From NCBI GenBank assembly GCA_035761325.1, contig DASTRG010000179.1, positions 10,879 through 74,878 on the forward strand: a DNA stretch of 64,000 nt, in the 5' to 3' direction. Positions 6,494 through 43,397 of the stretch are shown here, piece by piece. Below the pieces are notes generated by a model. That model saw only the letters and a list, made by a program, of their open reading frames with translations, did no database searches and was not told where the DNA came from. This DNA comes from Rhizomicrobium sp. Its GTDB lineage: Bacteria; Pseudomonadota; Alphaproteobacteria; Micropepsales; Micropepsaceae. The position numbers and the translations under genes were made by a program. How positions within the stretch are numbered: the stretch's first letter is position 1; each line of letters opens with the position of its first letter.

Positions 6494-7294
6494 CTATTTC
6501 ATCCGCTGCAGGCCCTTGTTCTCCCAAAGGGCGACATGCTCGGGTGCCATCAGATAATCGAGAAAGGCCTTCGCGGCCTGCTGGTGGGTGGACCGCGACG
6601 ATACCGCCAGCGCGGTGTCGATATAGGCACCCAGTTCCTCGGGCACCGTTCCGACCAGTTCTATCTCAGGATGGTTGAGCACCTCGCAGATAAGCTGCAG
6701 CGCCATGTCACCCTCGCCGCGCACCAGCGCCTGGCCACCCTCGCCTTTCAGACTGATCTTGCTCTTCACGCCCTCGAAAATCGGATAGCGGTGCAGCATG
6801 TCGTTGATGATGCGCGCCTCCATGCTGCCGGTGGCGGGATTGGAATAGAGTACCGTGCCGCCGGCTTTCAGCGCCGCGGCCAGCTTCTCGGGTGTCGAGA
6901 TATCAGGATGCGGCTTGCCTTTGGGCACCGCCAGGCCGACATAGACGCGGCCCAGACGCGCGCGGGTTCCGGCCACGACGCTGCCTTCGGCTTCCATCCC
7001 GTCCATGAAGGCAATCGGCAGCGCCACCACATCGGCAACAGGCGTGCCGGTCTTGATGTCATTCACGAGGCGGGCCATGCCGGTGGCCTTGACCGTGACC
7101 TTGACGCCGGTCTCCCTGGTATAGGACTGGGCCAGATCCACCAGCCCGGAATTGTAGACCACGCCCGGTGTCAGGACATAAAGCTCGGTCTGTTGCGCCG
7201 ACGCAGGTCCGGACACCAGAGTCCCTGCCGCCAAGGTTCCCAGCGCCAGCAGCGCCGCGATGGCCAAATTCGCACTACCAGGTTTGCGCATCAT
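6494..7294 (-). CDS. Orphan ModA-like periplasmic substrate-binding protein (SBP_bac_11 type)
   Basis: Signal peptide, GLAVPKGKPHPDISTPE and YSNPATGS motifs. No modB/modC nearby. Confidence 0.7.
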   Translation of the reverse strand: MMRKPGSANLAIAALLALGTLAAGTLVSGPASAQQTELYVLTPGVVYNSGLVDLAQSYTRETGVKVTVKATGMARLVNDIKTGTPVADVVALPIAFMDGMEAEGSVVAGTRARLGRVYVGLAVPKGKPHPDISTPEKLAAALKAGGTVLYSNPATGSMEARIINDMLHRYPIFEGVKSKISLKGEGGQALVRGEGDMALQLICEVLNHPEIELVGTVPEELGAYIDTALAVSSRSTHQQAAKAFLDYLMAPEHVALWENKGLQRMK

Positions 7295-7308
7295 TTTTTC
7301 CTGTCCTT

Positions 7309-8673
7309 CTATTCTTCAGCGGGCACGGCCGCCCCCATGTCGGCGTTCTGCGCCTCAGGCCCGAAATACATCATTGCCGCAATAAGAATTGCCGCGAAGG
7401 CGGCCACAACCGCCAGCGCGATGGAATAGTTGCCGCCCTGACTCTGCGCGAACTCGGCCTGGAACACTGCGTTGACGGAGGCGATCAGGTTGCCAAGCTG
7501 ATAGACGGTGCCGCCAAAAGTTCCCCGCACTGTGGCAGGCGACAGTTCGTTCAGGTGCACCGGCACTACGCCCCAGGCACCCTGCACGCAGACCTGCATC
7601 AGAAAGGCGCCGGCGGCCAGCGTGACCGCGGTAGGCGCATAGGCCCAGAAATAGATCACCGGCAGCGACAGCAGCGTCACCATCACCACTGTCTTGCGCC
7701 GTCCCAGTGTCTGGCTAAGAGAGGCGAAGAACAGTCCGCCCACGATCGCGCCGATGTTCAGGATGACCGTGACGGTCGTTACCGTGGCAGGGTCGAAATG
7801 ATGCTGCTCACGCAGGAAGACGGGGTAAAGATCCTGGGTGCCGTGGCTGAAGAAGTTGAAGCCTGTCATCAGGATGATGGCGTAAAGTGCCAGTTTCCAG
7901 TACTGCCGGATAAAGGGGGTCATCACCGCGGCGAGAACCAGCAGCGGCACCACCAGCAGGACGATGTAGAGCAGGCCCTGTTCGCGGCCGAACTCGATCA
8001 GCAGGAACATCACAACAACCAGCGCCGCGGTAACGCCGGCGAGGTGCAGGCCATGCCGGCCCGCGCTCACGATTGCAGGACGGCGCCAGGACGCACTCTC
8101 CGGTACCGCCAGGTAGATGTAGAGGGCCAGCAGAAGCCCTGGAACCAGCCCCGCCATGAACATGCCGCGCCAGCCAAAATGAACATATAGCACCCCGAAG
8201 ATCAGCGATGCGATCAAATACCCCGAAGGATAGCCTGACTGCAGCAGCCCGGAAACGAACCCCCGCGCCTTTGGCTGGACAGTCTCCATCGCAAGGCTCG
8301 CGCCGATACCCCAGATGCCGCCCATCGCAACGCCGAACAAGGCGCGAATAATCAGGAAAACATCAAGGCTGGTGGAGAATGCCGTGGCGAATCCGAACAC
8401 CGAATAGCAGACGACATTGAAGATCAGCACCTTGCGCCGGCCGTAATCGTCAGCCAGCCGGCCGAACAGAAACGCGCCAAGGGGACGCACCGCCAGCGTC
8501 AACGTCACCGCCAGCGCAACCGCGGGAATGCCCACGTCGAACTGCTTGGCCACATCGGGCAGAACGAAGACGAGCGCAAAGAAGTCGAGGGCGTCGAAGG
8601 TCCAGGCCAGGTAACTGGCAGCAACCACATGCTTCTGCGGCCGCGTCCAGCCCGAAAGTGCGCCCAGCGCCAT
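7309..8673 (-). CDS. MFS transporter, sialate:H+ symporter/JEN-like carboxylate family
   Basis: AWTFDALDFF, GRLADDYGRR, GLLQSGYPSGY, NFFSHGTQDLYP, QGAWGVVPVHLNELSP. Confidence 0.88.
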   Translation of the reverse strand: MALGALSGWTRPQKHVVAASYLAWTFDALDFFALVFVLPDVAKQFDVGIPAVALAVTLTLAVRPLGAFLFGRLADDYGRRKVLIFNVVCYSVFGFATAFSTSLDVFLIIRALFGVAMGGIWGIGASLAMETVQPKARGFVSGLLQSGYPSGYLIASLIFGVLYVHFGWRGMFMAGLVPGLLLALYIYLAVPESASWRRPAIVSAGRHGLHLAGVTAALVVVMFLLIEFGREQGLLYIVLLVVPLLVLAAVMTPFIRQYWKLALYAIILMTGFNFFSHGTQDLYPVFLREQHHFDPATVTTVTVILNIGAIVGGLFFASLSQTLGRRKTVVMVTLLSLPVIYFWAYAPTAVTLAAGAFLMQVCVQGAWGVVPVHLNELSPATVRGTFGGTVYQLGNLIASVNAVFQAEFAQSQGGNYSIALAVVAAFAAILIAAMMYFGPEAQNADMGAAVPAEE

Positions 8674-34028: not shown

Positions 34029-34330
34029 AGCCCGGCCAGTTGCGGTTGCGGCTGCGTCTGGCGATCACCGGCACTTCCGTGCATACCAGATTAGCTTCAC
34101 GTCCTGTTGGCCGCTAGTTTGGCAAACATGCAGGCCCTGAAGTTACGAAAATCCCGCAGAATAGTCACTGCGGCACCAAAGGTTTCCGCCTCGTCGTAGC
34201 ATCAACCCGTTGGTACCATAGGAGGATTCGGCAACAGGCGGAAAATGTATACTCTAGAACATAAAATCGGATCCGCTTGAGCCATTTTCCATCTGGTCGG
34301 AGTACCAGAGTATTGGGCGGCGCGGGTGAT

Positions 34331-35584
34331 ATGACCAACATAGCGGGGTACGGCGCAGGGGCGTGGAACGCATTAGCGGCGGAAGGACCGCCGCAAGTCA
34401 CCTCCGCGATCTCGGCGCGCAAATTCGAGAGCAGATGTCTTCGCAAATTCCTTACCATCGAGGAATTTGAAGCCGCAGCCAGGCGCAAGCTGCCGCGTAT
34501 CCTGTACGACTATGCCGCCAGCGGCACGGAAACTGACGCCTCGCTTCGCCAGAACCGGCAAAGCTATGCCAGATATGAACTAGTGCCGCGCGTGCTCGTG
34601 GGCAGGAGCAGGTGCGATACCGGGGCGCGCCTCTTCGGCCGGCGCTACAGCGCGCCATTCGGTATCGCCCCCATGGGGGCGAGCGCGCTTTTCACGTATC
34701 GCGCCGACATCAAGATGGCGGAAGCCGCGCGGGCAGCAGACATTCCCATGGTGCTCAGCGGCGCCTCCCTGATCGCCCTGGAAGAGGTTGCAGTGGTGGC
34801 GCCGGGAACCTGGTTCCAGGCCTATCTTCCCGGCCATCCCGACCAGATCAGGCGCCTGATCCAGCGGGTTGCGCGCGCCGGCTATGAGACGCTGGTGGTG
34901 ACCGTCGATGTGCCTGTGCCCGGCAATCGCGAAACGGACAAGCGCAACGGATTCAATGTGACGCTCGCGCCAAGTGCGAGGCTGTTATGGGATGGCGTCA
35001 CCCATCCCGCATGGCTGCTGGGCACGGCTCTTCGCACGATCATGCTGCGTGGCATGCCCCATCTGGAGAATTACAGGGCCTCGCGCGGCCCTTCGATGCT
35101 GTCGGGGATCGACATTGGTGACGGCGGCGCGGTCTTGCGTCATGGCTGGGCGGAGATCCGGCTGGTGCGCAGCCTGTGGAAGGGTAACCTCGTGGTGAAA
35201 GGCATTCTCTCGGCCGCTGACGCCCGCCAAGCCCAGGAATGCGGGGTTGATGGCATCATCATCTCAAACCACGGCGGCAGGCAACTGGATGGCGCTGTTG
35301 CCCCCTTGCGGATATTGGCGGCGGTCCGTGAGGCGGTTCCAGGTCTGACTGTCATGATCGATGGCGGCGTTCGCCGCGGAACCGATGTGATCAAGGCGCT
35401 CGCGCTGGGGAGCGACTTCGTGTTCATCGGCCGCCCGTTCCTTTACGCGGCCGCCGTTGCCGGCGCCGAGGGGGTCACGCACGCCATTCGCCTGATGGGC
35501 GGGGAAATCCGGCGCAACATGGTCCTGCTGGGCATCGGATCGCTCAAGGAATTGACCCCATCGTTCGTGTCGGAGGCGTATTGA
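34331..35584 (+). CDS. FMN-dependent alpha-hydroxy acid oxidase/dehydrogenase (LldD/mandelate dehydrogenase family)
   Basis: PFGIAPMG, WFQAY, TVDVP..GNRE, VVKGI, SNHGGRQLDG, DGGVRRGTDVIKALALG. Start uncertain (34277 or 34331). Confidence 0.92.
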   Translation: MTNIAGYGAGAWNALAAEGPPQVTSAISARKFESRCLRKFLTIEEFEAAARRKLPRILYDYAASGTETDASLRQNRQSYARYELVPRVLVGRSRCDTGARLFGRRYSAPFGIAPMGASALFTYRADIKMAEAARAADIPMVLSGASLIALEEVAVVAPGTWFQAYLPGHPDQIRRLIQRVARAGYETLVVTVDVPVPGNRETDKRNGFNVTLAPSARLLWDGVTHPAWLLGTALRTIMLRGMPHLENYRASRGPSMLSGIDIGDGGAVLRHGWAEIRLVRSLWKGNLVVKGILSAADARQAQECGVDGIIISNHGGRQLDGAVAPLRILAAVREAVPGLTVMIDGGVRRGTDVIKALALGSDFVFIGRPFLYAAAVAGAEGVTHAIRLMGGEIRRNMVLLGIGSLKELTPSFVSEAY

Positions 35585-35632: not shown

Positions 35633-37531
35633 ATGCTGGCATCGCAATTATCGTGGCTACCAAATAATCCCGCTTGGCGAGATGACTTCAGGTCTGTTGC
35701 CGCTGACGACGACGCCGATTTCGACGCACTGTCGCGACTGGCCGGTTTCCAGATCGATTTTCTTTGCACCGAGCGGTTGGACACGCTCGCCCAGCGGAAA
35801 TTGCGCGCCATCCCTCCGGCGCAACTTCCTGACCCACCAATCCGTCTGGCGATTCTGGGTTCGTCGACCATATCGTACCTAGTTCCTGCTATCCGGGTGG
35901 GACTGTTGCGTCGCCGGCTTTGGGCGCAAGTCCATGTCACCCCCTACGGCCAGTATCTTCAGGAGTTACTGGACCCCGGTTCCGATCTCCACAAATTCAG
36001 GCCCACGGTCATCCTCTTTGCCTTCGACGCGCGTCATGTCATTGGGCTGCCGGCGGCCGGAATGAGCAGAGCCGAAGCGGATAGCCTGATCGAGGAGAAA
36101 GCCACTCATTATGCGGAGCTTTGGGACCGGGCGCAGCAGGCATTCTCGTGTCGTGTCATCCAGCAAACCATGCTGCCGGTTTTTCCGGAGCTGCTTGGCA
36201 ACAACGAACACCGGTTGCCCGGTTCGCCGCAGCGGATGGTTGCCCGCTTCAACCAGTGCATGCGGGAGTTGGCGGACGGCCGCCGGGTCGATGTGCTGGC
36301 GATCGACAATCGCGTACAACGCGATGGCATAGGCCTTTGGCACGAGCCCGCGCTTTGGCATAAGGGCAAGATCGAAATCGCCCCCGCGATGGCACCCCTC
36401 TATGGCGATCTGGTGGCGCGGATCGTGGCGGCGCAATGCGGCCGTTCGCACAAGTGCCTGGTACTGGATCTGGACAACACATTGTGGGGCGGCGTGGTAG
36501 GTGATGACGGCGTCGAAGGTCTGGTGCTGGGCCAGGGGAACGCCGCGGGGGAAGCCTTCGTCGAATTCCAGCGCTATGTCCAGCAATTGTCGGCCCGGGG
36601 AGTCATCCTGGCCGTCTGTTCCAAGAACGAGGAAAAAGCCGCGCTTGAGCCCTTCAGCCGCCATCCGGAGATGGTGCTGAAGCGACCGGCCTTCGCCGCT
36701 TTCCTCGCCAATTGGACGGACAAGGCGACCAACCTCAGGCACATTGCCGAAAGGCTCAATATCGGCCTGGATTCGCTGGTGTTCGCAGACGACAGCCCTT
36801 TCGAGCGCAATCTTGTCCGGCGCGAATTGCCGATGGTCGCCGTGCCGGAACTTCCCGAGGACCCCGCCGAATATGCACAGTGCCTGGCGGATGCCGGATA
36901 TTTCGAAGGCATCGGATTGACCGCAGAGGATCTGAGCCGCGCCGACCAGTACCGTGCGAATGCGGAGCGCGAGACCTTGCGGACCTCGATGGCCGACCTA
37001 CCGTCCTATCTGAAAAGCCTGGAGATGGAGATGATAGCCGGCCCCTTCGACCGGCTCAGCCAGACGCGCATCACCCAGCTGATCAACAAGACAAACCAGT
37101 TCAATCTCACGACACGCCGTTACAGCGAACGGGAAGTTGCCGAAGCCATGGAGAGAGCAGATGTCGTTACCTTGCAGGTCCGTTTGACAGACAAGTTCGG
37201 CGACAATGGCATCATCGCGGTTGTGATTGGCAAGCCGTCGGGCGCGGGTCTCCTCATCGACACATGGCTGATGAGTTGCCGCGTCCTTGGCCGCCAGGTC
37301 GAGCAAGCGACGCTCAACCTCCTGGTAAAGGAAGCCCGCCGCCGGGGTCACAAGGCACTGATCGGGGAGTTTCGGCCGACGCAAAAAAACATCATCGTCC
37401 GTGACCACTATAAGAAGTTGGGCTTTACCCGCCAGGATTGCGACGAGTCCGGCAACAGCCTGTGGCAGCTTCCGATCGACCAGTTCGTTCCATTCGACAC
37501 CTTGATAACGATCGCAGGAATGCCGGCATGA
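35633..37531 (+). CDS. fkbH: FkbH-family HAD-IIIC protein (glyceryl-ACP synthase type)
   Basis: KCLVLDLDNTLWGG, CSKN, NWTDKA, FADDSPFER, LINKTNQFNLT, DKFGDNG, WLMSCRVLGR (acceptor Cys). Confidence 0.92.
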   Translation: MLASQLSWLPNNPAWRDDFRSVAADDDADFDALSRLAGFQIDFLCTERLDTLAQRKLRAIPPAQLPDPPIRLAILGSSTISYLVPAIRVGLLRRRLWAQVHVTPYGQYLQELLDPGSDLHKFRPTVILFAFDARHVIGLPAAGMSRAEADSLIEEKATHYAELWDRAQQAFSCRVIQQTMLPVFPELLGNNEHRLPGSPQRMVARFNQCMRELADGRRVDVLAIDNRVQRDGIGLWHEPALWHKGKIEIAPAMAPLYGDLVARIVAAQCGRSHKCLVLDLDNTLWGGVVGDDGVEGLVLGQGNAAGEAFVEFQRYVQQLSARGVILAVCSKNEEKAALEPFSRHPEMVLKRPAFAAFLANWTDKATNLRHIAERLNIGLDSLVFADDSPFERNLVRRELPMVAVPELPEDPAEYAQCLADAGYFEGIGLTAEDLSRADQYRANAERETLRTSMADLPSYLKSLEMEMIAGPFDRLSQTRITQLINKTNQFNLTTRRYSEREVAEAMERADVVTLQVRLTDKFGDNGIIAVVIGKPSGAGLLIDTWLMSCRVLGRQVEQATLNLLVKEARRRGHKALIGEFRPTQKNIIVRDHYKKLGFTRQDCDESGNSLWQLPIDQFVPFDTLITIAGMPA

Positions 37532-37776
37532 CAGATTCTGAAATTCTCGACGGCATCACCGACATCGTTCGCGACGCGCTGGAGGACGATACGATCGTGC
37601 TTTCACCCGAGAGCACGGCCAGCGACTACGCCGATTGGGATTCGTTCAAGCATATTACCATCGTCGTGGCGACAGAAGTGCGCTTCGGCGTCAAGTTCAA
37701 AACCGCGGAAATCGAATCGATGCGTAAGGTTGGCGACTTCATCAGCCTGATCCAAAAAAAGCTGAAAGCCGCCTGA
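37528..37776 (+). CDS. Acyl carrier protein
   Basis: 82 aa, acidic, WDS phosphopantetheine site (Ser39), E.RFGVKF. ATGA overlap with fkbH. Confidence 0.92.
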   Translation: MTDSEILDGITDIVRDALEDDTIVLSPESTASDYADWDSFKHITIVVATEVRFGVKFKTAEIESMRKVGDFISLIQKKLKAA

Positions 37777-37834
37777 ATATCCGGAATCCGTTCGCGCGTG
37801 GCGGATGGGCATACGCCGAAGCAAGGGAAGAACG

Positions 37835-39385
37835 GTGCTATTCAATTCCTATTCATTCCTTTTCGGCTTCCTGCCAGCTTCTATGCTCGCCTACTTTCTT
37901 GCAGGCCGCATCGACCGGCGCGCGGCGGGACTATCCCTCGTCATAAGCTCGCTGATCTTTTACGCTTGGTGGAATCCACCCTTCGTCCTGGTGCTACTGG
38001 GTTCCATTCTGTTCAACTATGCGATCAGCCGGTGGATAGCCCATTGCGAAGGTCAAGAACGGACACAGAGCGCGATCCTGGCACTGGGCATCGGCATCGA
38101 TCTGGCAGTTCTGGTCTACTACAAATATCTCTTCGTTTTGGTGGGTTTCCTGACAGGCCTGGGCCTGATCCATTTGGAGCTGGCTCCGATCATTCTGCCG
38201 TTGGGCATCTCCTTCTACACATTCACCCAGATTGGATATCTCGTCGACTGCCGGCAGGGCATGGCGAAGGAACGGAACATTTTCGAATATTTCCTGTTCG
38301 TTACATTCTTTCCCCACCTGATTGCCGGACCGATCATTCATCATCGCGAGATCATGCCCCAATTCGCCAGGCCGGAAACATATCGGCTGGACTCTGGGAA
38401 AATGGCGGTTGGCCTGACGTTCTTCATCATCGGGCTAGCGAAGAAGGTTCTGCTGGCGGACTCCATGATCCAGCTCGCCAATGCCGGATTCGCCGTACCC
38501 GGAACGCTGGGACTGGTCACCGCCTGGCTGACAGTCTTGTCCTACTCGATGCAGATCTATTTCGATTTTTCAGGCTATTCCGACATGGCGATCGGCCTGG
38601 CCTATATGTTCAACGTTCGATTTCCCATCAATTTCAACTCGCCCTACAAGGCCCATTCCATAATCGACTTCTGGCAACGCTGGCACATGACGTTGACGCG
38701 TTACCTTACGCTCTATCTCTACAATCCTATGGCCATCGCGATCACGCGACGACGCGCGGCCAAGGGCCTGCCGATTTCAAGCAAGGGGGCGAAAACCGTT
38801 ACCGGGTTTCTCAACATGATCGCCTTGCCAATTTTTTTCACGATGATCCTGGCGGGGATCTGGCACGGCGCGGGCTCGCAATTCCTTGTTTTCGGGCTTC
38901 TTCATGGTCTCTATCTGACGGTCAATCATGCCTGGCAAATTTTCAAGCCGGCTGGCCTGTCGCGTGCTTTCCGCAGTCCGCTGCTCCGCCCTTTAGTCGT
39001 TATCGCGCCAGTTTTGCTCACCTATATTGCGGTTCTGGTGGCGCAAGTTTTTTTCCGCGCAGCCTCGTGCAGTGACGCGGTTGCAATGCTGGCGGGCATG
39101 ATCGGCCAGCACGGCGGTGGATTGGCTGGCTGGGAAGACAAATTCGGCTCCGTGAGCCAAGGCACTGCCCGGCTTCTCGTCTATTTCGTCATCGTTTGGG
39201 CGATGCCGAATTCCCAGGAGATAATGGCGAAATTTCCCGCAGCCTTGGCTCGAATCAAGGCGGCCCCCGATGGGCTGTTGCAATGGAGTCCCGATCTGAG
39301 ATGGGCGGTTCTCATCGGCGGGATGGCCGGCATGGCGATCGCCAATCTCTCCCACCACACCGAATTTCTTTATTTCCAGTTCTGA
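37835..39385 (+). CDS. MBOAT O-acyltransferase (AlgI/DltB/PatA family)
   Basis: GTG start MLFNSYSF, LPLGISFYTF, FFPHLIAGPI, YFDFSGYSDMAIG, DFWQRWHMTL, LAGIWHGA (catalytic His), EFLYFQF C-terminus. Confidence 0.93.
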   Translation: MLFNSYSFLFGFLPASMLAYFLAGRIDRRAAGLSLVISSLIFYAWWNPPFVLVLLGSILFNYAISRWIAHCEGQERTQSAILALGIGIDLAVLVYYKYLFVLVGFLTGLGLIHLELAPIILPLGISFYTFTQIGYLVDCRQGMAKERNIFEYFLFVTFFPHLIAGPIIHHREIMPQFARPETYRLDSGKMAVGLTFFIIGLAKKVLLADSMIQLANAGFAVPGTLGLVTAWLTVLSYSMQIYFDFSGYSDMAIGLAYMFNVRFPINFNSPYKAHSIIDFWQRWHMTLTRYLTLYLYNPMAIAITRRRAAKGLPISSKGAKTVTGFLNMIALPIFFTMILAGIWHGAGSQFLVFGLLHGLYLTVNHAWQIFKPAGLSRAFRSPLLRPLVVIAPVLLTYIAVLVAQVFFRAASCSDAVAMLAGMIGQHGGGLAGWEDKFGSVSQGTARLLVYFVIVWAMPNSQEIMAKFPAALARIKAAPDGLLQWSPDLRWAVLIGGMAGMAIANLSHHTEFLYFQF

Positions 39386-39387
39386 AC

Positions 39388-40407
39388 ATGAATACGCAAA
39401 TATCAACTGCAATCCGATATCTCGCCGTCCTGCTGGCGGTAATTTTCGTCGTCTTGGCTGCAATCGGGGTCCTCAATTACCTTGTCGATCCCCTCTGGTT
39501 TTTTGGCGGAAACAAGATTCAACCCCGCAACTTCGCATTCAACGAGCGTGTGGCGCGGATGGCGCATTTCATGTCCACCGACCGCGACTTCGACTGCTAT
39601 ATATTCGGCGCTTCCCGCGTGGCCATGGTGAACGTGCATGATTTCAAGGGCCACCGATGCTTCATGGTGTCCTTTGAAAACGCCTCACCCCGCGAACTTG
39701 TGGCCTATGCCTCATATATGAAGGCGCATGCGCGGCGAGAACCGACCCTGGTCGTGGTCGGCGTGGACGACTTCGATTTCATCGACCAGGCTGACGCCAA
39801 TGACGTGCCCGAGTTCGTGCGAGATGGCGGTGTTCCGCACTTCTGGCAATATTATTTTTCGTGGGACGTGGCAACGTGGTCGCTCAAGACCATATTCGAC
39901 ATCTCCCCGAAGGCCAGATATTTCGGCAAGGACCTGTCAGGCCAGATCCGGGCCGATGCACGTATGCTTCCGGTGTTGCGAATGACACTGAAGCCGGGCC
40001 AGAAATGGCACATGAGTCTTGCAAGCGTGAGCGAATATGCAAAATTTCGCCAGCTGTTTCCAAAAGCACATCTCGTTGGCTACGCGACGCCGGTGGCGGC
40101 GACCCGGATTGCCGAATATCGGATGTCGGGTCTGCTGCCGTTCTATATCCGGGCGCTCATTGAGACCTCGACCAAGTTCGACGAGATGTACGATTTCTCG
40201 ATACCGTCCACCATCACTGCCGACCCCGGCCTCACTTATGACGGCTCGCATTATCAACCTTCAGTCTCCCGAGAGATCGCCATCGCAATCCAGCGGCATG
40301 AACCTTCCTTTGGCGTGGCGCTGACGGGCCGGTCCACGGAAGACTTGGAAGCGGACTATGCGAGCCGGCTTGCCCGATTTCACAAGTATGCCGAGGCAAA
40401 AATGTAA
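39388..40407 (+). CDS. Membrane-anchored periplasmic SGNH-like acyltransferase partner (DltD/AlgJ/PatB-like)
   Basis: N-terminal TM then VDP, FGASR (Ser nucleophile-like) and YDGSHY (DxxH). Starts 2 nt after the MBOAT stop. Confidence 0.7.
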   Translation: MNTQISTAIRYLAVLLAVIFVVLAAIGVLNYLVDPLWFFGGNKIQPRNFAFNERVARMAHFMSTDRDFDCYIFGASRVAMVNVHDFKGHRCFMVSFENASPRELVAYASYMKAHARREPTLVVVGVDDFDFIDQADANDVPEFVRDGGVPHFWQYYFSWDVATWSLKTIFDISPKARYFGKDLSGQIRADARMLPVLRMTLKPGQKWHMSLASVSEYAKFRQLFPKAHLVGYATPVAATRIAEYRMSGLLPFYIRALIETSTKFDEMYDFSIPSTITADPGLTYDGSHYQPSVSREIAIAIQRHEPSFGVALTGRSTEDLEADYASRLARFHKYAEAKM

Positions 40408-40547: not shown

Positions 40548-43397
40548 ATGGTCGAATTCGTTGACGATTTGCTGTTTGACGCCGCGCGAACCCGTTCACA
40601 ACGTCCGGCTCTGACTTTGGACGGTAGAGTCACGAATTACGGTGAGTTGGCAGACAGCGTACGGCGGTTTGCCCGCGCCTTGCGCGCTTCCGGCATTCGC
40701 GCGGGGGACCGCGTCGGCATTTTCCTGGACAAACGGGAAGAAGCAGTTGTCGCGATCATTGGCGCCTCGGCGGCGGGCGCCGTCTTTGTGCCGATAAACC
40801 CCGCCTTTAAATCCTCCCAGGTCGGATACATGGTTGAGGATTGTGGCATCAGGATCCTGGTCACTACTCGAACCAGGATTGCGAATTTCGAGGACATTCC
40901 ACGCTGTCCTACCATCGAGAAAATCATCCTGGTGGACGATGATGAGACAGCAACCGCTCGGCATGGCGTTCAATTCCAGACCTTCAGCACGTTCCTGCAT
41001 TCCGGCTCGCGGGAGATCCCTGTAATTGGGCCCCGCACCGGCAACGACATGGCCGGCATACTCTATACGTCCGGTTCGACCGGCAACGCGAAAGGCGTGG
41101 TCCTGTCACATCGCAACTTTGTCGCCCGAGCCGAGCATGTCTCTCGGTATCTCAAGATGACGGATGATGACAGGGTTTTGAATCTGCCGCAGTACAGTTT
41201 TGGTTTTGGCCTGGATCAACTGTTCAACGCCTTCTATGTCGGCGCCTGCTCCGTCCTCCATAATTTTGTGACAGCCCAGAACCTGATGCGTACCATCGTC
41301 GAGGAACGCGTCACCGGTGTCGCCGCGGTCCCCACCGCCTTGACGGCGCTGGCGGGAATGGACTGGCCACAGGAAGCTCGCGACACGGTCCGGTATATCG
41401 CCGCGGCAGGCGGGCGCATGCCAGAATTCGTCACCCGGTCGCTCAGATGCCTGGTGCCCGGTGCCGACATCTATCTGATGTACGGACAGACCGAGACGTT
41501 GCGTTCAACCTTTCTGGCACCGAGCGAGGTGGACCGGCGGCCCAACTCCATCGGAAAAGCGATCCCCGGTGCCCACATACACGTGGTGAGGTCGGATGGG
41601 ACGCTGTGTGGTCCCAACGAGCCTGGCGAACTCGTACAAAGCGGCGATACCGTAGCTTTGGGCTACTGGAACGATGCGGCCCGCACCGCCCAGATATTTC
41701 GACCGGCGCCCATCGCCCTGCCGGGGAGTTCAACGCCCGAGATCGCGGTCTGGACGGGCGATCTGGTTTCCTATGACGAGGAAGGCTTTCTTTATTACAT
41801 AGGCCGACGGGACAATCTCATCAAGACAAGCGGCTACCGCGTCAGTCCGACAGAGATCGAAGATGTGCTCCATGCCGATGCGATGGTGGAAACCGCGGCG
41901 GTAGTCGGTATCAAGAATGACGAGCTTGGTCATGCAATCGTTGCCTTCGTCACCAGCAGGACCGGCGTTGAACTGGATCAAGAACGCCTGATGGCGCATT
42001 GCCGGCATGAGCTGCCGGGTTACATGGTTCCGCATCAGTTGATTCAACTCGCCAGCCTGCCGCTGAATGCGAATGGAAAGATTGACAGGACACGTCTGAT
42101 TGCCGATTTTGCAGAACAGAAGCTGCAACCCATCGCGGAACGGGCGCGCACGTTACCGAAGGGTAGCGATCGCGGCTTGGTGGGGCGCCTGACAACTTAT
42201 GCGTTGGAGATGGTCGGACTAAAGCGACGATCGGTCGGCAGCGTAGCGGAAATATTTGCCTCGACTTTCAATCTGAAGGCGGTCGATCTCGATCTCACCT
42301 TCTCCGCGCTGGGCGGCGATTCGCTCTCTTATGTCGATGTCCAAATCGCGCTTGAGGATTTTGTGGGCTATTTGCCGGAGAATTGGGAAAATACCCCCAT
42401 TCGCGAACTGGAAAAATTGGAAAGATCGTCAGTTACCAGCACGTCGATGGCCCCGGACGTGCTCTTGCGAGCGGCCGCCATCCTGGGCGTGGTCAGCTTT
42501 CACAATCGTTATTCCAACCTTTCGGGCGGCGTAAGTCTTCTTTTCCTCCTGTCGGGTTTCAGCTTCGCTCGCTTTACCTGGAGCAGTGACCAATCACAGG
42601 TCCGACGCTCCATCCTTTCCACCATGTCCCGGATAGCGTTCCCCACTTTTCTGCTTTTGCTGGTCTTCTTCCTGGGCGACGGTATCGTGCACTGGAGCAT
42701 GCTGCTGTTCGTGGACAATCTGATCGAACCGCAATCCCCCCTGTGGTGGGAAGGCGCTTACTTCGTGCAGGTCCTTTTCCAGATCTTCCTTCTGATGGGG
42801 ATCATGGTAAGCATTCCTGGCGTCGGCGCATTCGGAGAACGGCGGCCATTCGCCTTTGGTCTTATCTTCACGGCGACGGCGGCGCTTCTGAATTTCGGGT
42901 TAGAGATGCTGGTACGATCCCCGGTCATGAACTCCGGCATTCTGCCGCAATATTTCCTTTGGCAATTCGCCGTTGGCTGGCTGGTCTTCGCCGCCCAGCG
43001 TCAAAGCCAACGAATTGCGGCCATCGCAATGCTGATCGGCTGCCTCGCCTTGGCGTATATCGGGCGCGGCCGGACCGGCGACTTCCTCTTCACGGGTCAT
43101 GCGCCCTATTGGCTCCTGCTGGGCAGCGCGCTGCTTTTGTGGATGCCGGCAATTCCTATGCCCCGTCTCATCGCTGCACCCATCATGACCGTCGCCAAAT
43201 GCACCCTCTTTATCTACTTATTCCATTGGCCGTTCGACGTCCTCGCGTTCCGTTGGTTCAATGTGCATGGCGGTCCATTGGGAATTGCCATCGGGCTGGC
43301 CGGCGGCATCGGGGTCTGGGCGCTTTATGAATCGCTCGCACAGCTGGGGCGCTCCTTTAGGGCAACTCCGCGCAGGGCGGCCGAAGTCTTTGGCTGA
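40548..43397 (+). CDS. Adenylation-thiolation-acyltransferase 3 fusion (NRPS-like acyl loader with integral membrane acyltransferase)
   Basis: YTSGSTGNAKG, YGQTE, TGDL, IKTSGYRVSP and NGKIDR (A domain, resembling exosortase A-associated acyl-CoA ligases). LGGDSL with Ser592 (T domain). LLRAAAILGVVSFH, FLLSGFSF and YLFHWP in a multi-TM C-terminal third (AT3). Confidence 0.85.
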   Translation: MVEFVDDLLFDAARTRSQRPALTLDGRVTNYGELADSVRRFARALRASGIRAGDRVGIFLDKREEAVVAIIGASAAGAVFVPINPAFKSSQVGYMVEDCGIRILVTTRTRIANFEDIPRCPTIEKIILVDDDETATARHGVQFQTFSTFLHSGSREIPVIGPRTGNDMAGILYTSGSTGNAKGVVLSHRNFVARAEHVSRYLKMTDDDRVLNLPQYSFGFGLDQLFNAFYVGACSVLHNFVTAQNLMRTIVEERVTGVAAVPTALTALAGMDWPQEARDTVRYIAAAGGRMPEFVTRSLRCLVPGADIYLMYGQTETLRSTFLAPSEVDRRPNSIGKAIPGAHIHVVRSDGTLCGPNEPGELVQSGDTVALGYWNDAARTAQIFRPAPIALPGSSTPEIAVWTGDLVSYDEEGFLYYIGRRDNLIKTSGYRVSPTEIEDVLHADAMVETAAVVGIKNDELGHAIVAFVTSRTGVELDQERLMAHCRHELPGYMVPHQLIQLASLPLNANGKIDRTRLIADFAEQKLQPIAERARTLPKGSDRGLVGRLTTYALEMVGLKRRSVGSVAEIFASTFNLKAVDLDLTFSALGGDSLSYVDVQIALEDFVGYLPENWENTPIRELEKLERSSVTSTSMAPDVLLRAAAILGVVSFHNRYSNLSGGVSLLFLLSGFSFARFTWSSDQSQVRRSILSTMSRIAFPTFLLLLVFFLGDGIVHWSMLLFVDNLIEPQSPLWWEGAYFVQVLFQIFLLMGIMVSIPGVGAFGERRPFAFGLIFTATAALLNFGLEMLVRSPVMNSGILPQYFLWQFAVGWLVFAAQRQSQRIAAIAMLIGCLALAYIGRGRTGDFLFTGHAPYWLLLGSALLLWMPAIPMPRLIAAPIMTVAKCTLFIYLFHWPFDVLAFRWFNVHGGPLGIAIGLAGGIGVWALYESLAQLGRSFRATPRRAAEVFG

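Follow-up and report, generated by a model that had tools for sequence, protein, structure and literature searches.

A candidate carrier-protein-fed MBOAT-SGNH acylation module in a glycan locus of Rhizomicrobium

What might an FkbH-like loader do in a polysaccharide locus when its genome holds no polyketide synthase (PKS)? The question is raised by four adjacent genes at positions 35633-40407 of a stretch of Rhizomicrobium sp. DNA of 64,000 nucleotides (nt) (contig DASTRG010000179.1, positions 10,879 to 74,878), the whole of which is called the window here. They encode a long-form FkbH-like loader, an acyl carrier protein (ACP), an MBOAT (membrane-bound O-acyltransferase) and a membrane-anchored fourth protein, P4. 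A sequence-only reading of the window had proposed that FkbH takes the place of the loader DltA in a route by which an MBOAT and an SGNH-type partner modify a glycan. From the analysis described below, we consider that on balance the four genes probably form a carrier-protein-fed MBOAT-SGNH O-acylation module, which would decorate the polysaccharide of the surrounding locus.

The four genes and their products

The four genes are co-directional on the + strand and their reading frames are intact. The FkbH gene (35633-37531, 632 codons) and the ACP gene (37528-37776, 82 codons) share an ATGA overlap at 37528-37531. The ACP stop codon at 37776 is followed by a gap of 28 nt and the ATG of the MBOAT gene at 37805 (37805-39385, 526 codons), and the MBOAT stop codon at 39385 is separated by only 2 nt from the ATG of P4 at 39388 (39388-40407, 339 codons). 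Since MBOAT homologues begin with MLFNSY, the true MBOAT start may instead be the GTG at 37835, in which case the gap would be 58 nt. The coordinates, the tight junctions and all motifs that the sequence-only reading had listed (DLDNTLW and MSCR in FkbH, WDS in the ACP, WHG in the MBOAT, GASR and DGSH in P4) were thus found again on the DNA. A scan for promoters and terminators gave nothing exceeding chance. The genes around them, for GT2 and GT4 glycosyltransferases, a Wzm/Wzt ABC exporter, HAD-UbiA fusions, and PIG-L and HfsH-like deacetylases, are those of a glycan locus. A PKS, of which the earlier reading saw none in the window, is also missing from the genome: in the 3.1-Mb, 93%-complete alphaproteobacterial metagenome-assembled genome (MAG), no modular PKS was detected, the only ketosynthase matches being three of FabB/F size. 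Therefore, there is no PKS to consume a glyceryl-ACP. FkbH and P4 are each present once in the MAG.

FkbH matched TIGR01686 with 313.8 bits (cut-off 146.65) over profile positions 3-323 of 323, which places it in this family. Its residues 1 to about 265 form the FkbH_N region, followed by a HAD-IIIC phosphatase domain with D279-x-D281-N-T (the DLDNTLW motif) and by a C-terminal acyl-transfer domain with Cys549 (MSCR, nt 37277-37279). The nearest solved structure is that of the uncharacterised Bacteroides fragilis protein BF1531 (PDB 3SLR, E 1.5e-64, residues 63-426). Three kinds of FkbH, all from genomes of the same phylum, were compared: short PKS-adjacent forms, PKS-embedded forms and long forms. 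The HAD and C-terminal domains of the window protein retain all motifs common to the three. It can be seen that, first, D279-L-D281-N-T and M-S-C549-R align with the corresponding residues of 10 short PKS-adjacent FkbH proteins and 5 PKS-embedded FkbH domains, and that DxDNT, SKN, DD, TNQFN and the SCR cysteine are common to the window protein and the PKS-type FkbH. Secondly, in a maximum-likelihood tree the short forms make up a long separate branch and the PKS-embedded forms another group, while the window FkbH falls in a supported clade (96/89) of 14 sequences, nine of them MBOAT-linked. The MBOAT label was clustered on this tree, and none of 500 shuffles was as low. A weak GDSL-like match in FkbH_N was considered as a second catalytic SGNH domain and rejected: over 45 long-form sequences the region is poorly conserved, has no invariant catalytic residues and lacks conserved Ser and His. 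For the adjacent ACP, the matches to generic ACP models were all under the cut-offs (PP-binding E 0.005), and Ser39 in WDS (nt 37642-37644) is the predicted phosphopantetheine site.

The MBOAT matched PF03062 (E 5e-22) and the DltB structures 6BUG and 8JEM (E 5e-28), with His294 and His354 aligned to both histidines of DltB; His354, in the WHG motif (nt 38864-38866), is the predicted catalytic residue. Against the DltB model TIGR04091 it reached 164.8 bits, under the cut-off of 375, and is thus a homologue of DltB and not an equivalog. The protein exceeds DltB in length by about 100 residues, and its C-terminal hexapeptide is FLYFQF (residues 521-526, nt 39365-39382), in which Tyr523 occupies the tyrosine position of the FxYxxF acyl-shuttle motif; the same motif ends 21 of 25 MBOATs from related loci. 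In PatA, the FxYxxF tyrosine undergoes auto-acetylation and passes the group on to PatB, the SGNH partner, and in the Dlt pathway the motif is found on the microprotein DltX, where it carries D-Ala (PMC12148441). With FxYxxF fused to the MBOAT C-terminus, a DltX would be dispensable. Judged from these sequence features, the window MBOAT and P4 are mechanistically a PatA/AlgI-type MBOAT-SGNH pair. As a separate observation, the MBOATs of two FkbH loci (L042 and L065; L numbers denote loci fetched for comparison) have no C-terminal FxYxxF, and their partners show D/N-N-H in place of D-G-x-H; these loci may have a separate DltX-like microprotein.

P4 gave no match in Pfam or NCBIfam, and when profiles of its close homologues or of 40 family members were compared with PDB chain sequences, only chance matches to antibody chains, Ro and RbcX were obtained. 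An AlphaFold2 model built with 20 homologues (mean pLDDT 85.9, pTM 0.85) consists of an N-terminal transmembrane helix (about residues 4-33) and an alpha/beta domain, predicted to be extracytoplasmic, so that P4 would be anchored in the membrane as a type II protein. In the model a strand leads to Ser76 (GASR), which opens a helix, and D285-x-x-H288 (DGSH) follows the last strand; Ser76, Asp285 and His288 are the predicted triad. Having the serine in front and Asp-x-x-His at the end corresponds to the canonical SGNH order, which is common to DltD and PatB and permuted in AlgX and AlgJ. The top Foldseek matches in the PDB were SGNH esterases and DltD (6PFX, E 3.4e-3; 3BMA, E 0.09). Only seven columns are invariant among 40 homologues (24-54% identity), and these include S76, D285, H288, C70 and C91; Cys70 and Cys91 may form a disulfide, which would fit a periplasmic domain. 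In an exhaustive profile search the family comprised 1474 representative clusters (E <= 1e-3). Of the 40 members, seven match PF07611 (DUF1574; best E 3.2e-9), a family of the SGNH clan with no known function (PMC9487903). We therefore regard P4 as a predicted SGNH/DltD-like protein, distantly tied to DUF1574. The fold that the earlier reading expected for 39388-40407 was accordingly returned by structure prediction, with invariant Ser, Asp and His and with weak Foldseek scores.

Recurrence of the gene set and a candidate relay

Is the association of these genes particular to one operon? In a 401-genome sample of the phylum, FkbH was present in 61 genomes and the P4 family in nine, with FkbH beside P4 in five of the nine. 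Among the matches listed, an MBOAT was found in at least 120 of the 401 genomes, that is, in at least 46 of the 61 FkbH-positive and at least 74 of the 340 FkbH-negative genomes. Forty stand-alone FkbH loci were fetched, and the co-localisation figures rest on them: in 37 an ACP with the WDS motif adjoins FkbH, and in 17 an MBOAT gene lies no further than about 8 kb away; chance alone, at about 2.5 MBOAT genes per 4 Mb, would give roughly 1%. Beside such an MBOAT there is usually a membrane-anchored protein of 310-400 residues with G-x-S near residue 70 and a C-terminal D-G-x-H, and true DUF1574 members occupy the partner position at L045 (36.8 bits) and L031 (49.7 bits). The order FkbH-ACP-MBOAT-partner is shared by the window and Rhizorhabdus argentea; Sinorhizobium meliloti pSymB has MBOAT-partner-ACP-FkbH, L045 partner-MBOAT-ACP-FkbH, and L063 FkbH-ACP-partner-MBOAT. 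Because the order varies between loci, the linkage argues for function and not for inheritance of one operon. The neighbourhood survey suggested by the sequence-only reading thus shows the loader, ACP, MBOAT and SGNH-like partner recurring together in several orders and lineages. Closer to the window, the order FMN-dependent dehydrogenase-FkbH-ACP-MBOAT-P4 is kept in six region-spanning loci of Alphaproteobacteria MAGs (FkbH identity 64-87%).

Two named, culturable organisms carry the set. In Rhizorhabdus argentea, FkbH-ACP-MBOAT is followed by the gene of a 401-residue protein, with Wzy_C and GT4 genes alongside; in S. meliloti pSymB, rkpR, with the capsule-export ABC transporter genes adjoining it, is a few kb away from the set. 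In neither island was another acyltransferase found nearby to accept an acyl-ACP. At L092 (S. meliloti ml66 plasmid pMl9, pSymB-like), the 409-codon gene between MBOAT and ACP (7217-8446) is annotated as a 'TonB-dependent receptor'; its product resembles the SGNH-like partners of other loci in its N-terminal transmembrane segment, its VGGSTT serine motif and its C-terminal DPGH, and the annotation is probably wrong. In S. meliloti 1021 pSymB (L094, 11209-13091, minus strand) the long-form FkbH is frameshifted, its two frames being split at residue 361; the gene is intact in ml66, and single-piece tblastn matches suggest that it is intact in other strains as well. At two other loci, L029 (genome G046) and L031 (G154), FkbH directly adjoins the gene for a membrane-anchored DUF1574-like protein, and the fetched flanks contain no MBOAT. 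An apparent FkbH-ACP-acyltransferase-3 link at L072 was discarded, since the adjoining gene at that locus encodes an AMP-binding enzyme.

What is observed is the four-gene set with its motifs, the fold predicted for P4 and the repeated linkage of the genes; from these we infer each chemical step of the following relay. In the cytoplasm, the FkbH-like enzyme would take from glycolysis a C3 unit, most likely 1,3-bisphosphoglycerate, and bind it to Cys549 as a thioester; the HAD domain would strip the phosphate, and the acyl group, most likely D-glyceryl, would be moved to the phosphopantetheine on Ser39 of the ACP. This step is suggested by the motifs conserved with characterised FkbH and OzmB. 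The acyl-ACP would then dock on the cytoplasmic face of the MBOAT, where His354 would catalyse transfer through the membrane onto Tyr523 of FLYFQF, by analogy with the passage from DltC through DltB to the DltX tyrosine and with the auto-acylation of PatA. Finally, Ser76 of P4, assisted by Asp285 and His288, would accept the acyl group and esterify a hydroxyl of the periplasmic glycan, a step that would fit the predicted fold, the residues kept invariant and the coupling of the genes. The coupling of the MBOAT-P4 pair to an ACP and a loader of its own argues for the ACP as the donor.

Several observations weigh against this relay or against parts of it. Some concern the individual proteins. 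In the tree, the window FkbH, a long form, falls in a clade none of whose members is characterised, and the short forms, of the OzmB type, stand on a long separate branch. The Foldseek scores of P4 are weak (best E 2.6e-3, TM scores 0.3-0.4), and P4 itself has no Pfam match, PF07611 at E <= 1 included. When the P4 family was aligned with the DUF1574-type partners by hhalign, the similarity covered only 51 columns around DGxH (E 0.014, probability 3%); direct membership of P4 in DUF1574 is for this reason not claimed. The dehydrogenase conserved upstream of FkbH may alter the acyl group or belong to a neighbouring adenylation-acyltransferase route, as discussed below. Others concern the linkage. 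MBOAT-P4 pairs with 38-46% identity occur with no FkbH nearby at L012-L014 and L026, and no FkbH occurs anywhere in the assemblies from which L013 and L014 come, so this MBOAT family can presumably use another donor, e.g. acetyl-CoA as in PatA. Conversely, 23 of the 40 FkbH-ACP loci have no MBOAT nearby, and in Niveispirillum the FkbH-ACP pair is followed by a cytoplasmic WcbI-like acyltransferase, from which it appears that FkbH-ACP pairs also serve other acceptors.

The observations on linkage bear on the possibility that two independent systems stand side by side, linked only via the same glycan. The MBOAT and P4 would then be an acetyl-CoA-using pair of the PatA/PatB type, and FkbH and the ACP would feed a cytoplasmic acceptor enzyme, for example one that N- or O-acylates a sugar linked to a nucleotide or a lipid. 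The separate occurrence of each pair would be expected in that case; moreover, the MBOAT has the PatA/AlgI architecture with a fused shuttle, PatA uses acetyl-CoA (PMC12148441), and in Campylobacter jejuni the FkbH-domain gene cj1302 sits in a flagellin glycosylation locus (PMC7099621). However, no gene for an alternative acceptor enzyme is conserved alongside the cassette, and in the Rhizorhabdus and S. meliloti islands the MBOAT pair provides the sole acyltransferase beside FkbH-ACP. The linkage has also outlasted several rearrangements of gene order, it is concentrated in particular FkbH clades, and translational coupling runs through all four genes. We consider two independent systems unlikely, and prefer the relay from FkbH-ACP to MBOAT and P4.

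The target of the relay may also be asked. With a P4 family that has no characterised member, and DUF1574 being without known function (PMC9487903), the acceptor could lie elsewhere in the envelope, for example in peptidoglycan, in a lipid head group or in a protein. This seems very improbable, since at nearly every locus the cassette lies in or next to polysaccharide genes (glycosyltransferases, Wzm/Wzt, Wzx, Wzy_C, dTDP-rhamnose-like or rkp export genes).

The acyl group and the neighbouring genes

If the relay operates, which acyl group does it carry? Loading of D-glyceryl from 1,3-bisphosphoglycerate by the window FkbH is suggested by the shared motifs alone, because the enzyme is a 632-residue long form in a clade separate from OzmB and the PKS-embedded forms; the characterised OzmB has 366 residues (PMC9057759). 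Within the relay, we nevertheless think plain glyceryl rather likely. As regards known glycan substituents, gellan carries L-glycerate, and FkbH chemistry gives D-glyceryl.

Alternatively, the relay may run as proposed with an acyl group other than plain glyceryl, either because FkbH loads another phosphorylated C3 acid or because the ACP-bound glyceryl is modified first. The modification could be an oxidation to a hydroxypyruvoyl- or tartronyl-type group aided by the dehydrogenase or, elsewhere, dehydration and reduction to lactyl. Tailoring at the level of the ACP seems to be common, as FkbH-ACP-MBOAT clusters elsewhere contain genes for a MaoC dehydratase and a short-chain dehydrogenase/reductase (SDR), for an S-adenosylmethionine (SAM) methyltransferase, or for B12-radical-SAM enzymes. 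For the lactyl starter of the bryostatin PKS, the proposed route is a glyceryl unit loaded by FkbH and acted on by a dehydratase (DH) and a ketoreductase (KR). In the present loci, MaoC and SDR next to FkbH-ACP look like a DH and KR tailoring of the ACP-bound C3 unit and imply other C3 acyl groups, such as lactyl; the cassette class therefore probably delivers several C3 acyl groups. The MaoC and SDR genes stand beside FkbH-ACP with or without an MBOAT, and are fused (about 480 residues) at L028, L041, L050 and L093 and separate at L042 and L069. In addition, genes for B12-binding radical SAM enzymes flank the partner-MBOAT-ACP-FkbH set of family f64 (two at L045, at least one at L054 and at L060), and these enzymes might methylate or rearrange the acyl group.

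In the window, the gene in question is that of an FMN-dependent 2-hydroxy-acid dehydrogenase of the LldD/glycolate-oxidase family (34277-35584, + strand; PF01070, E 3e-121), 49 nt upstream of FkbH. The TTG at 34277 leaves about 67 residues ahead of the domain, so the true start is probably further downstream. The gene lies directly upstream of FkbH in all six close relatives with sequence there (L001, L002, L003, L005, L010 and L011), and no such gene was detected at the 40 less closely related FkbH loci. Its constant position in the close clade favours a modified acyl group. On the other side, the window cassette has no MaoC or SDR gene, the other tailoring genes are likewise missing from the window, and the dehydrogenase could equally serve the protein encoded downstream of P4. 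Also, to our knowledge, characterised FMN-dependent 2-hydroxy-acid dehydrogenases act on free L-hydroxy acids and not on D-glyceryl thioesters. We judge a group other than plain glyceryl decidedly unlikely for the window.

The downstream protein (40548-43397, + strand, 949 residues) is encoded 140 nt after P4, outside the four core genes. It is a fusion of AMP-binding, PP-binding and Acyl_transf_3 domains, i.e. an adenylation-carrier-acyltransferase-3 (A-T-AT3) protein, with no SGNH domain, and it matches TIGR03098, the 'exosortase A-associated' acyl-AMP ligase, with 618.9 bits (cut-off 592). The gene follows P4 at L001, L003, L004, L005, L010 and L011 and is absent at L002. In current reviews, the donor of AT3 enzymes is acyl-CoA and not a carrier protein (PMC9558356). 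The A-T-AT3 protein is a further candidate, distinct from the cassette, for a membrane acyltransferase fed by a carrier. It is even conceivable, though we find it improbable, that the locus holds two parallel carrier-fed routes, one from FkbH-ACP to the MBOAT and one from the adenylation and carrier domains to the fused AT3 domain, with P4, whose gene stands between the two, as a shared periplasmic transferase and the dehydrogenase supplying or editing one of the acyl groups. If true, this would break with the view that both MBOAT-SGNH systems outside Dlt and AT3 enzymes use acyl-CoA.

Comparison with known systems

The sequence-only reading knew of no biochemical demonstration of such a route, and likewise no publication that connects FkbH to an MBOAT or to a DltD-like protein in the modification of glycans was found in the searchable literature, subscription journals being outside the search. 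In the open papers, D-alanylation of teichoic acids is the sole characterised carrier-dependent MBOAT route, and the MBOAT/SGNH pathways outside Dlt are stated to use acyl-CoA and hence to have no carrier protein (PMC12148441, 2025). Feeding by FkbH-ACP, if true, would widen the acylation of envelope polymers to hydroxy-acids derived from glycolysis (glyceryl, lactyl and tailored derivatives). It would also provide a function for the long-form FkbH or 'HAD-IIIC phosphatase' family (>8000 clusters) and for DUF1574-like SGNH proteins, and might explain base-labile, non-acetyl esters on bacterial polysaccharides. New points for the window locus are the P4-type partner family, the dehydrogenase neighbour and the adjacent A-T-AT3 fusion.

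The cassette resembles the Dlt system (DltA/C/B/X/D) in having a dedicated carrier loaded in the cytoplasm, a DltB-homologous MBOAT with a catalytic His, a tyrosine motif of the FxYxxF type, and a membrane-anchored protein of (here predicted) SGNH fold with Ser first and Asp-x-x-His last, as in DltD. In contrast to the ATP-dependent D-alanine adenylase of Dlt, its loader is an FkbH-type HAD/acyltransferase that would use a glycolytic C3 unit. No DltA-type ligase belongs to the cassette, as the adenylation-domain protein nearby (40548-43397) is of the TIGR03098 type with its own carrier and AT3 domains, and there is no separate DltX microprotein, the shuttle motif being fused to the MBOAT. The MBOAT is not the DltB equivalog (164.8 against 375 bits), P4 has no Pfam DltD match, and the host is Gram-negative, with the polysaccharide of a Wzm/Wzt locus as the expected target in place of teichoic acids. 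Therefore, the cassette is not a member of the Dlt pathway. Of the earlier proposal, the architecture, with FkbH standing where DltA would be as the loader of an MBOAT-SGNH glycan route, is supported by comparative genomics; its Dlt-like MBOAT is not, since the enzyme is of the PatA/AlgI type.

With the O-acetylation systems PatA/PatB, AlgI/AlgJ/AlgX, WssH/WssI and PatA1/PatB1, the cassette shares an MBOAT with two extra C-terminal helices ending in FxYxxF, an adjacent gene for a separate extracytoplasmic partner of the SGNH superfamily, and an envelope polymer as the (here expected) target. However, those systems use acetyl-CoA without a carrier (PMC12148441), whereas the cassette couples an ACP and a loader to the pair. 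P4 also stands outside the characterised SGNH families AlgX, DHHW, PatB/DUF459 and DltD, the nearest family being DUF1574. Here the seven matching P4-family members and the true DUF1574 proteins adjoining FkbH-ACP-MBOAT at L045 speak for kinship, while the window P4 lacks a match and resembles the DUF1574-type partners only in the C-terminal DGxH block. The loader, for its part, shares with FkbH, OzmB and BryA the TIGR01686 score above the cut-off, the DxDxT phosphatase motif, the SCR cysteine and an adjacent dedicated ACP. It differs from them in its 632 residues with an extra FkbH_N region (as in BF1531, 3SLR) and its separate clade, and in a genome that lacks a PKS, an FkbG/I/K-type tailoring set and a ketosynthase partner alike. 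Taken together, these comparisons suggest that the module may be a hybrid, with a carrier-bound donor as in Dlt and with the fused tyrosine shuttle and polysaccharide target of the PatAB and AlgIJ systems.

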